Of a stretch of DNA of 53,257 bases, positions 12,553-14,622 are shown piece after piece. The position numbers and the translations under genes are program-made. The notes under the pieces were generated by a model that saw nothing but the letters and a program-made list of their open reading frames with translations, had not been told where the DNA came from and ran no database searches. Source of the DNA: Candidatus Vogelbacteria bacterium (GTDB taxonomy: Bacteria > Patescibacteriota > Minisyncoccia > Phycocordibacterales > JACOZG01). The stretch spans positions 1 to 53,257 of the forward strand of contig JACOZG010000021.1 of NCBI GenBank assembly GCA_016181465.1. The letters run 5' to 3'. The number at the start of each line of letters is the position of its first letter. The first letter of the stretch is position 1.

Positions 12553-14622
12553 TCATAGACCGACCATTTTTCGGAATTCGGTTTCGTCAATCACCCGCAC
12601 CCCGAGCGCTTTGGCTCGGGAGCTCTTTTCGCCCGGGCTCGCGCCGACAACCACAAAATTTGTCGTCGGCGACACGGTTTCCGCCACCCGGGCGCCGAGA
12701 CTTTTAACCCGGGCCTTGACTGCCTCACGGGGCAAAGACAAAGCGCCGGTAAAAACAAAGGTTTGATTCGCCAAGGGGCCGGCGGCCGGAACGATTTTAA
12801 CCGATAAAATTTTAATTTGCCGGAGCAGACGTTCGAGCATTATTTGATTCTCGCGCCCGCGGAACCATTTAAAAATCGACTCGGCGACGACCGGCCCAAT
12901 ACCAGAAACGGCTTCGAGATCGGCGCGATTCGCCGCCTGAATTCTTCCCAATCGCCGAAAGCGACCAGCCAAGAGTTCGGCAGTTTCCTCCCCCACTCCG
13001 TCAATCGAGAGAGCCACCAAAAGCCGCGGCAGGGTTATGCTCCGGGCGCGCTCAATCGCCGCCAGCAAATTCTTGACGGACTTATCTCCCAAACGCGGCA
13101 AGTTGATCAAATCGCCATAAGTCAAAGTAAAGATGTCCGGGTACGAATCAATCAGTTTGTGATCAAGCAAGAGATCAATCATCTTTCGGCCAAGACCGTC
13201 AATGTCAAAAGCGATTTTGGAAACGAGATGGTAAAACCGCCGGCGCAGTTGAACAAAAGATTTTTTATTAACGCAGCGATAAGCCGCTTGGCCGGGAATC
13301 CGTTCAATTGGCCCGCCGCAGGCGGCCAACGTTTTCGGGAAAACAAACGGCCGGGCGCCAGCGGGACGCAATTCTTTCACAACGGTAATGATCTCCGGGA
13401 TAATATCGCCGGCCTTACGGACAATCACAGTATCGCCGATCCGCGCGTCGAGCCGTTTGATTTGGTCTTCATTATGGAGCGTGGCGCGGCTAACTGTGGT
13501 GCCGGCGAGCGAGACCGGCCGGAGACGGGCGACCGGCGTAATCACGCCGGTCCGACCGACCTGAAGCACAATATCTTCGAGCACCGTGGCAACCTCCTCG
13601 GCCGGAAACTTAAAAGCAATGGCGAAACGGGGCGCCTTGCCGGTGTAGCCGAGCCGCTCTTGAAACACCCGCTCGTTGACTTTAACCGCCACGCCGTCAA
13701 GTCCGTAATCTTCCCCGTCGCGTTTGGTCTGCCATTCCTGCCAATAAGCAATAACTTCGTCAATGTCGCGGCAGAAACGATAATGGCGGTTGACTTTGAA
13801 GCCGAGTTTTTGCAGGAGTTGCAATTCTTCAAGTTGGGTTGACGGCAAAACTAAAGGCGAGACCTTAGAGCCCGCCAAGGTCTCGCCTTGTGAGAACCAA
13901 GCAATGTCGTAAATAAAACTGTCCAGCCGCCGGCCGGCCACCACCTTCGGGTCAAGCTGGCGGATCGTGCCGGCGGCGGCGTTGCGAGGATTGGCGAAAA
14001 GCGGTTCGCCGGCGGCGCGGCGCTCGACATTGATCCGCGCCAATTCTTCCTTGCTCATCCAGATCTCGCCTTCAACCACCACATCTACTTCTTCATTCAA
14101 ACAAAGGGGCACCGATTCGATGGTGCGAACATTAGCCGTTACATCCTCGCCGACCCGGCCATTGCCGCGGGTGGCGGCGGTTATTAGCACGCCTCGCTCA
14201 TAAGTCAGGACGATTTTGAACCCGTCAATTTTCAATTCCGCGACATAAGTCAATTTCGCATTAAGGGCGACCCTTTCTCTGTCAAGGGTCGCCCTTGACA
14301 CGGTCAAGGATTTTTTTACCCGGGCGTCAAACTCCCGCAGTTCCTCGGGCGTAAAAGCGTCGTTGAACGACCATTGGGGGGCGCGATGGGTAATTTTTTT
14401 AAACTCCGGCAGAGGTTTGCCGGCCACTCTTTGCGTCGGCGAATCCGGCGTCACGAGTTCTGGATGCGCCGCTTCGAGCTCGCTCAATTCGCGCTTCAGC
14501 GAATCCAACGCCGCGGCCGAGATCTCCTCGCGATCCAGCACATGGTAAAGATAGCGGTGATGATTGATCGCCTCGCGGAGTTTGGCAATGCGATCTTCTA
14601 TTTTACGCTTAGAAATAAGCAT
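12553..14622 (-). CDS. ligA: NAD-dependent DNA ligase
   Basis: The adenylation motif is AELKIDG, and the OB fold, zinc finger, HhH repeats and C-terminal BRCT-like segment are in the usual order. The start is set at ATG 14622 ([12 protein letters not shown]..). Confidence 0.96.
13854..13889. repeat. REPIN-like inverted doublet inside ligA (class AAGGCGAGACCTT)
   Basis: 13854-13866 AAGGCGAGACCTT and 13877-13889 AAGGTCTCGCCTT are exact reverse complements with a 10-nt spacer. The doublet is translated as [14 protein letters not shown]. Confidence 0.8.
14263..14296. repeat. REPIN-like inverted doublet inside ligA (class AAGGGCGACCCTT)
   Basis: 14263-14275 AAGGGCGACCCTT and 14284-14296 AAGGGTCGCCCTT are exact reverse complements with an 8-nt spacer. 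The doublet is translated as [13 protein letters not shown], just N-terminal of the KxDG motif. Confidence 0.8.

Follow-up and report, generated by a model that had tools for sequence, protein, structure and literature searches.

The stretch of DNA analyzed here, referred to as the window, is a complete contig of 53,257 bp from a metagenome-assembled genome of Candidatus Vogelbacteria, a lineage of the Candidate Phyla Radiation (CPR; Patescibacteria). It carries ligA, the gene for the NAD-dependent DNA ligase, and within the reading frame of this gene lie two short inverted repeats, hereafter doublets. The first-pass annotation, made from the sequence alone, had claimed two perfect 13-nt inverted doublets in ligA, the second of them just N-terminal of KIDG, and both were confirmed in frame at the positions given below. 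In each doublet the two 13-nt arms are 100% complementary. They are built as AAGG-N5-CCTT units, and the five central nucleotides (N5) give the class. The site-2 doublet is read as a 13-residue peptide (LigA residues about 245-257), as is the site-1 doublet (residues about 109-121), and the site-1 peptide ends 10 residues ahead of the motif-I lysine of the ELKIDG adenylation motif. In what follows L numbers denote loci and P numbers denote LigA proteins; the window LigA is 100% identical to P0001 of our LigA set.

12553-14622, minus strand: ligA, NAD-dependent DNA ligase, 689 residues from the ATG at 14622 (Pfam DNA_ligase_aden, 1.4e-81)
13854-13866 and 13877-13889, minus strand: site-2 doublet, AAGGCGAGACCTT / 10-nt spacer / AAGGTCTCGCCTT, class CGAGA
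14263-14275 and 14284-14296, minus strand: site-1 doublet, AAGGGCGACCCTT / 8-nt spacer / AAGGGTCGCCCTT, class GCGAC
14281-14299, minus strand: extended REP-type stem GTCAAGG-N5-CCTTGAC in the gene-proximal arm of site 1 (REP, repetitive extragenic palindromic sequence)
14293-14309, minus strand: small palindrome CCTTGAC-ACG-GTCAAGG, adjoining the extended stem at site 1

The ligA doublets have the anatomy of REPINs (REP doublets forming hairpins), which were defined together with the REP-associated tyrosine transposases (RAYTs) by Bertels & Rainey (2011, PMC3116915). Both are inverted repeat pairs with a short spacer, and as single-stranded DNA (ssDNA) both are predicted to form hairpins, at -14.6 kcal/mol (z = -5.9) for site 2 and -15.7 kcal/mol (z = -5.5) for site 1. 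The lower stem at site 1 (GTC...GAC) is identical to that of the transposase-flanking REPs in Vogelbacteria relatives.

Units across the window

The window contains 14 occurrences of the AAGG-N5-CCTT pattern, with 1.04 expected, a 13-fold excess that was reached in none of 100 shuffles, and each other spacing from N1 to N11 gave only 0-1 matches. Its density is 2.63 per 10 kb in the window versus 0.27 in related Paceibacteria DNA, for which we used 1.16 Mb from 80 other Paceibacteria ligA loci. These background loci came from a LigA-based scan of genome contigs in which the relatives among the matches listed were at most 60% identical, and they represent an outgroup sample; the close relatives used for comparison were fetched one by one, not from that scan. 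Because the motif count is unmatched in shuffles, the N5 spacing is strict and the background DNA is sparse in the motif, we conclude that the doublets go beyond chance.

In all, the window contains five doublets and several single AAGG-N5-CCTT units. Doublets beyond ligA are found in gatA, in gatC and in an intergenic spacer (32741-32775).

11436-11477, minus strand: gatA doublet, AAGGTTCGACCTT / 16-nt spacer / AAGGTCGAACCTT, in frame in a variable linker after DSTSL
12357-12398, minus strand: gatC doublet, a paralogue of the gatA doublet, with one arm mismatch
32733-32783, no strand: intergenic doublet (32741-32775), class CGAGA/TCTCG as at ligA site 2, stem extended to 17 bp
33933-33949, no strand: single intergenic unit, CCAAGGGCTGCCCTTGG
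51438-51457, no strand: single unit, GCAAGGTGTCGCCTTGACAT, which gives the TGA stop of the open reading frame (ORF) at 50678-51454

The spacers of the gatA and gatC doublets are identical at 12 of 16 positions. Since flanks are shared as well, we treat the two as paralogous copies of one element of ~46 nt. The intergenic doublet, which fills the spacer between the convergent recG gene and a Kre9/KNH-domain gene, has a predicted folding energy of -22.3 kcal/mol (z = -10.1) over 32733-32783. We rejected an intrinsic terminator as an explanation for it, as a T-run follows the hairpin on neither strand. A search against Rfam returned no family overlapping any unit in the window. The core of the unit at 51438-51457 is the same (inverted) as that of the REP beside the RAYT of L001.

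Four of the five window doublets lie inside ORFs, unlike REPINs, whose location is extragenic. The coding share of the window is at least ~84% (a rough lower bound), and across the loci of the Vogelbacteria clade four coding sites and four intergenic or gene-end sites carry doublets. With equal site counts at a coding share of ~84%, intergenic DNA is still favored per base, as expected if most genic insertions are lethal.

Some of the units bear on gene calling. The long gatA ORF (10767-12458) has a spurious N-terminal extension that overlaps gatC; alignment with relatives places the real start at the ATG at 12212 (MAVRDFSQL), and the gatC doublet lies in the overlap. The called ligA start of L001 falls within a REP unit. 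A 9-nt tandem duplication (AGAAATTTA) at 11410-11435 directly adjoins the gatA doublet, and L001 does not have it. The ORF whose stop is taken from a REP unit (50678-51454) has no Pfam match and lies in a low-GC stretch (38% GC).

The transposase and its flanking repeats

The window encodes a single Y1/HUH transposase, with REP units at both ends of its gene.

19694-20380, minus strand: Y1/HUH (RAYT-like) transposase gene, the only one in the window (Pfam Y1_Tnp, 6.5e-10)
20410-20536, no strand: three direct REP units, TATGTCAAGGTTTAACCTTGCC(GGAGGCTA), 5' of the RAYT gene
19687-19709, no strand: slightly degenerate copy of the REP unit in inverted orientation, GGCAAGGTTAAACCTCGACAATA, which overlaps the RAYT gene at its 3' end

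These units belong to class TTTAA, and the TAA stop codon of the transposase gene falls within the N5 of the 3' unit. The best and only NCBIfam match of the protein is NF047646 (REP_Tyr_transpos), at 50.0 bits and thus below the cut-off of 80. Its PNHFHLL (HUH) and YIHLNP (YxHxNP) motifs are invariant across 40 homologues. PDB sequence searches with the transposase, both single-sequence and profile, returned no match, so we turned to a fold search with an AlphaFold2 (AF2) model built on the 40 homologues (predicted local distance difference test, pLDDT, 88.6). The best match in the PDB was 4ER8, the complex of the Escherichia coli RAYT with a REP hairpin (E = 2.4e-5), and the transposases of IS608, IS200 and ISDra2 ranked behind it (5e-3 or worse). 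The protein therefore has the catalytic motifs and the fold of a RAYT but not the curated NF047646 score.

Genomic context agrees with this assignment: REPs flank the gene on both sides, and the window holds a single copy of it. In L204 as in the window it lies between prepilin peptidase and pilin genes, and in L209 it is directly upstream of the prepilin-peptidase gene; a second RAYT paralogue is found directly upstream of ligA in L001, L203 and L206. Such conserved positions form the pattern of a single-copy RAYT passed on by vertical inheritance. With at least 7,927 proteins among 8,000 candidates passing E = 1e-5, the family is very large, and its members come from Patescibacteria wherever the source names the organism.

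To place the units in a wider context we scanned Joint Genome Institute (JGI) metagenomes with an alignment of transposase proteins and sampled 80 homologous loci (L210-L289). The first-pass annotation had claimed that the ligA doublets and the RAYT-flanking unit have a common architecture and differ in their loops. This is real and general: in 45 of the 80 loci AAGG-N5-CCTT lies no more than a few tens of nucleotides from the gene start and end, and every locus has its own N5 in the flanking units. Near the transposase gene ends the unit density is 18.8 per 10 kb (100 matches in 53 kb) versus 1.14 in the remainder of these loci. Of the 98 RAYT-proximal units, 69 continue into a lower stem of 3 bp or more that is specific to the locus and covaries. 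The GTAG and CGTC tags were each found near 5 of these 98 units, versus ~8.8 expected by chance, and both tags are absent beside the ligA doublets.

The doublets in coding sequences and the transposase-associated units belong to one family, and several classes are common to both. Class TTCGA flanks the RAYT in L209 and L249, class ACAGT/ACTGT flanks it in L244 and L260, and class GCTAC lies inside the RAYT ORF of L218. Within the window, which is one contig of the genome, the ligA doublets and the RAYT units have the same architecture and a different N5 (CGAGA and GCGAC versus TTTAA). The first-pass view of a diversified element superfamily in coding DNA is supported.

Several further features of the transposase loci were recorded. 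In Vogelbacteria the transposase-associated REPs have a longer common unit, AGCCTCCGGC-AAGG-N5-CCTT-GACATA, whatever their N5 (window, 20478-20536; L204, 2644-2810 and 8540-8750; L209, 34-300 and 7064-7150). L204 and L205 retain REP arrays at positions where they lack the RAYT gene seen in relatives or have an AAA_14/DUF4143 gene in its place. At 12 of the 80 metagenome loci and in L181 (position 1957), a third copy of the locus's own REP lies in frame within the transposase ORF (for instance L210, 521; L211, 520; L220, 3167; L249, 446). This copy is ~150-170 nt from the RAYT start and is read as QG-x-x-L; the window RAYT lacks it. In 11 of the 12 metagenome loci its N5 equals that of the REPs on either side, and therefore the three REP copies change in concert. 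RAYT ORFs also terminate within the 3' REP (window, 19687-19709; L001, 10006; L203, 9946; L209, 1198), and the C-terminus ..VKATP* of the relatives' RAYTs is encoded by GTC AAG GCA ACG CCT TGA. A type IV pilus/pseudopilin cluster surrounds the window RAYT (14738-19617 and 20547-24064), with genes for prepilin peptidase, N_methyl pilins, T2SSF and T2SSE and a 587-residue ORF that has no Pfam match and contains repeated AWSSNIGWI motifs.

Occupancy, copying and covariation among relatives

We compared 120 Paceibacteria LigAs, and distant proteins lack both inserts. The site-2 segment is 29 residues long in nearly all LigAs outside the Vogelbacteria clade, and the site-1 segment usually measures 23-29 residues; both peptides are therefore insertions. 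The doublets are not unique to ligA and their peptides are not conserved in distant LigAs, the two findings that would have counted against the first-pass view.

Site 2 is polymorphic for insertion and deletion. Both sister clades of Vogelbacteria LigA have the element, and orthologous copies with the conserved spacer GGCGGGYTCT occur in L001, L205, L207 and L209. In contrast, L203 and L204 have an empty, ancestral-looking allele (AADFPRP, as in outgroups), L206 (P0003) retains the remnant of a 33-nt in-frame deletion, and in P0016 and P0018 the site is shortened at the protein level. At the arm pair, the window and L209 have C:G and L001, L205 and L207 have T:A, a distribution that does not follow the gene tree. 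Among carriers the 39-nt element has 90-100% identity, versus 63-80% for whole ligA genes, whose third codon positions are 39-62% identical. For instance, the longest exact run between the ligA genes of L001 and L205 is a 53-nt block containing the site-2 element, and the next longest is 17 nt.

Site 1 is occupied in every relative examined, by the following differing classes.

GCGAC: window, L204, L205
GCTAC (compensatory relative to the window): L001
ACTGT: L206, L207, L209
GTCAA/TTGAA plus ACCGT: L208
Degenerate remnant: L203

The site-1 spacers vary among relatives, and compound arrays are present in L205, L206 and L208. The distant LigAs P0036, P0097 and P0108 have RSDL..RSDL or RLNL..RFSL at this site, and these peptides are translations of further unit classes. 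The gatA linker behaves similarly: the site that is filled in the window holds a TCCGA/TCGGA doublet in L185 (Kaiserbacteria) and in L147, and L209 has no doublet in gatC or gatA. The two ligA sites and the gatA linker are hot spots with gain, turnover and loss. They may record one ancient gain with many losses, or recurrent gain or conversion. Aside from the doublets, the gatA gene of L001 is broken at ~12640-12780 by ~130 nt of unrelated sequence that ends in an N run, which splits the gene call; this is either an assembly gap or a foreign insertion.

Whole doublets have been copied to unrelated sites. A TTCGA doublet with the spacer TAAGACCCAAAATCTC is found in gatC (L001 and L203, perfect in both), in gatA (L204) and in two short intergenic spacers of L205 that belong to the type IV pilus operon. 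In the gatA genes of L001 and L206 one arm and part of the spacer are left, and because part of the spacer is retained we interpret these single arms as products of doublet decay. The site-2 spacer (GGCGGGTTTT; GGCGGGTTYT) recurs with other arms at the end of another gene in L207 (14340). Common spacers at non-homologous sites identify the doublet as the replicated entity and singlets as its decay products, as in REPINs.

The arms of doublets covary. We collected all 41 adjacent unit pairs in the Paceibacteria DNA analyzed without requiring complementarity, and in 29 of them, representing 13 classes, the N5 sequences are perfectly complementary (chance, 1/1024 per pair). Among the 25 distinct pairs, double-sided changes occur at all five central positions (55 cells versus 22 +/- 4 when shuffled), and the covariation score is 0.33 versus 0.10 when shuffled; neither value was reached in 500 shuffles.

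The sites also share a structural setting. In the AF2 model of the window LigA (mean pLDDT 75.3), the segments with pLDDT <50 include residues 111-120 (site 1) and 243-255 (site 2), both of them coil. The site-1 peptide is placed between the helix 92-111 and the motif-I strand 126-132, and the site-2 peptide between the strand 234-241 and the helix 263-273. In this model both insert peptides fit tolerated surface loops. The AAGG-N5-CCTT unit is read in all three frames across ligA, gatA, gatC and the RAYT gene and gives unrelated peptides; it is the nucleotide sequence that is kept at these sites, not the peptide.

Origin of the doublets

We consider it likely that the ligA doublets are intragenic, REPIN-like REP dimers of a Patescibacteria REP family that survive in dispensable loops. 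Each doublet would consist of two inverted copies of AAGG-N5-CCTT, the conserved apical portion of a family of hairpin repeats found alongside a large clade of RAYT-like Y1/HUH transposases in Patescibacteria. As ssDNA, the doublet would fold into a 13-bp hairpin; the RAYT would recognize the AAGG/CCTT stem, with the N5 loop as the lineage-specific determinant, and would copy or move the doublet, presumably on ssDNA. Many insertions would land in genes because the coding share is so high, and only in-frame, stop-free copies in dispensable surface loops would survive, where they probably leave LigA function unaffected. Existing units or REP-like half-sites may draw further units, which would produce hot spots with class turnover. 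Perfect complementarity of the arms would persist because doublets replicate as a unit, because arms convert each other, or both.

Several points weigh against this explanation. Neither transposition events nor intermediates were observed, and the action of the RAYT on AAGG-N5-CCTT hairpins is a proposal. No RAYT with CGAGA or GCGAC REPs was found in the window or among the 80 sampled loci. The coding doublets lack the additional conserved flanks (AGCCTCCGGC...GACATA) of the Vogelbacteria REPs that flank RAYTs, and they therefore may not be substrates of the same enzyme. We could not define exact element boundaries, and the ligA and gatA sites yielded neither a target-site duplication nor a shared target motif. 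TGGYTTT-like direct repeats flank site 2 in some genes, but we do not claim a duplication from them because empty and filled alleles align without one. The low pLDDT at the two sites may reflect a shallow alignment rather than disorder, as few aligned sequences carry the inserts. Finally, a structure selected by the host would just as much be expected to recur at the same sites and to be far better conserved than the gene around it.

Takeover for a host function is indeed the main rival, although we think it unlikely. The elements would then be more than parasites: the hairpins of ligA, gatC and gatA, together with the one downstream of recG, would be kept for a role in RNA or ssDNA. They might mark sites of RNase action or translational pausing, or serve as RAYT-dependent sites of regulation or recombination in replication and repair genes. 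Such selection could explain why the same sites are filled not only in sister clades but also in distant lineages (L185 and L147 for the gatA linker; P0036, P0097 and P0108 for ligA site 1), why compensatory C:G to T:A switches preserve perfect arms, and why the element remains 90-100% identical in genes with third codon positions at 39-62%. The 12 of 80 loci that keep their own REP in frame within the RAYT gene, and a reported bias of intragenic REPs to DNA repair and replication genes (PMC3733652), point in the same direction. However, close relatives do without the element (site 2 is empty in L203 and L204, one gatA arm is left in L001 and L206, and L209 has none in gatC or gatA), classes and spacers turn over at site 1 instead of being conserved, unrelated intergenic spacers contain identical doublets, and the region matches no Rfam family. 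A related and quite unlikely possibility, also based on the concerted change of the 5', internal and 3' copies in RAYT loci, is that the N5 loop is a programmable specificity code co-evolving with each RAYT. Doublets would then be targeted to the ligA and gatA loops and maintained there to serve the cell or the RAYT, as a homing-like REPIN system functionally integrated in these ultra-small bacteria and not merely as tolerated junk.

Explanations that dispense with a mobile element fare worse. Quasi-palindromes in flexible linkers might have been perfected in situ by intrastrand template switching, a process that is said to make compensatory changes in one step (work attributed to Ripley and to Lovett), and the resemblance between sites would then be convergent. 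This would account for perfect arms and for class switches at a fixed site, and it sits well with the missing target-site signature. We nevertheless regard it as highly improbable, because it leaves unexplained the strict AAGG-N5-CCTT shared with the RAYT-flanking REPs of 45 of 80 loci, the identical 16-nt spacers at non-homologous sites and the 53-nt identical block in genes that are 63% identical. That the insert peptides, with their RxxL repeats, are themselves functional in LigA and the palindromy incidental is scarcely credible: carriers do conserve the site-2 peptide, and RxxL is seen again at site 1, but one DNA unit read in different frames in gatA, gatC, ligA and RAYT gives unrelated peptides, synonymous sites are conserved, copies also occur in non-coding DNA, and the peptides are predicted to be disordered loops. 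Although the window comes from a metagenome assembly, chance or an assembly artefact has next to no claim, given that the motif count was reached in 0 of 100 shuffles, that N5 complementarity has a chance of 1/1024 per pair, and that the same elements occur in independent assemblies from NCBI, the European Nucleotide Archive (ENA), JGI and Logan.

Returning to the REPIN-like explanation, one of the closest known systems is that of REPINs and RAYTs (PMC3116915; 4ER8). As there, inverted doublets of a short palindromic repeat form hairpins with compensatory changes, singlets arise from doublet decay, and the transposase that the repeat flanks is of the Y1/HUH type, is single-copy and has a conserved, syntenic position. 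Unlike in that system, the arms here are 13 nt and the whole elements 34-42 nt rather than ~70-110 nt; the GTAG tag is missing, and the apical AAGG/CCTT is conserved while the loop and lower stem vary with the transposase. Moreover, most window doublets are intragenic, the transposase scores below the NCBI cut-off for RAYTs, and the host belongs to the Patescibacteria, not the Proteobacteria. REPINs number tens to hundreds of copies per genome; our count of 14 units is for one 53-kb contig of the genome.

The intragenic location itself has precedents. Di Nocera et al. (2013, PMC3733652) described REP monomers and dimers in frame within known genes of other phyla, where they encode 20-30 residues. 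They found genes hit twice, REPs giving stop codons to neighboring ORFs, and a bias to DNA synthesis and repair and tRNA-related genes, including the DNA ligase gene of Opitutus terrae. In-frame REPs in genes, double hits, an affected DNA ligase and stop codons are all features of our elements too, but those REPs have GTAG or CGTC tags, whereas ours have neither and belong to another sequence family and another phylum. Beyond that system, two ligA sites and the gatA linker are here reused across lineages with class turnover, and the element is conserved far above its host gene. Intragenic REP dimers, including one in a DNA ligase, are therefore already known (PMC3733652); what is new is the sequence family, the very small size, the host phylum, the divergent RAYT clade and the reuse of the same protein loops. 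Our literature search found no paper that joins RAYTs or REPINs with Patescibacteria.

Other systems resemble ours in part. The transposases of IS200/IS605 elements (TnpA of IS608 and ISDra2) share the Y1/HUH fold, and recognition of ssDNA hairpins is a property of that family. Those elements are autonomous, their left and right ends differ and their target is a tetra- or pentanucleotide, whereas here a single-copy syntenic gene is flanked by arrays of one hairpin type. Rickettsia palindromic elements, reportedly described by Ogata et al. in 2000 and also cited by Di Nocera et al., are said to be palindromic selfish DNA inserted in frame in essential genes of a reduced genome and tolerated at the protein surface. 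They are similar in being in-frame palindromic insertions of that kind, but RPE-1 measures ~100-150 bp, has no known associated transposase and is unrelated in sequence, and our elements measure 34-42 nt. DNA uptake sequences of Neisseria and Pasteurellaceae are short motifs, often in inverted pairs, that are enriched in genome-maintenance genes. The ligA doublets are likewise short inverted pairs in a genome-maintenance gene, and the window also has type IV pilus genes. Uptake sequences, however, are one fixed 9-12-mer per lineage, whereas here the central 5 nt vary freely, the arms need only complement each other, and the motif tracks a transposase gene. We rejected both an uptake-sequence and a restriction-site reading, since N5 is free and only the complementarity of the arms is kept.

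REPIN-RAYT systems have so far been studied almost only in Proteobacteria and are regarded as extragenic. The present data add a very large Y1 transposase clade, Patescibacteria wherever named, with an invariant AAGG/CCTT apical stem and a transposase-specific loop, and doublets within essential genes such as ligA and gatCA of small, gene-dense genomes. Each naturally occurring loop variant is found at the 5' end, often also within the ORF, and at the 3' end of its own transposase gene, and the series amounts to a ready-made experiment on RAYT recognition. The hot spots in ligA and gatA offer dated insertion, turnover and loss events and hence a view of REPIN dynamics in uncultured bacteria. 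For annotation, the inserts yield lineage-specific indels and spurious N-terminal extensions in CPR proteins.

When we searched public viral contigs with the generic doublet pattern, the matches listed (at least 120) were mostly unrelated tandem direct repeats. Other palindromes and structured features were also recorded. Between the T2SSE-like and T2SSF-like pilus genes of the window, the spacer is taken up by an AT-rich palindrome with 52-nt arms (77% complementary) at 22871-22966, and in L205 the same spacer holds a TTCGA doublet. L158 has near-identical TTCAA/TTGAA doublets at 11240-11380 and 13730-13870, each at the tip of a different longer intergenic palindrome; these may be insertions into the loops of pre-existing hairpins. 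The window also contains a tmRNA gene (41420-41801) and a cluster of tRNA genes (7938-9207), both identified with Rfam and unrelated to the doublets.

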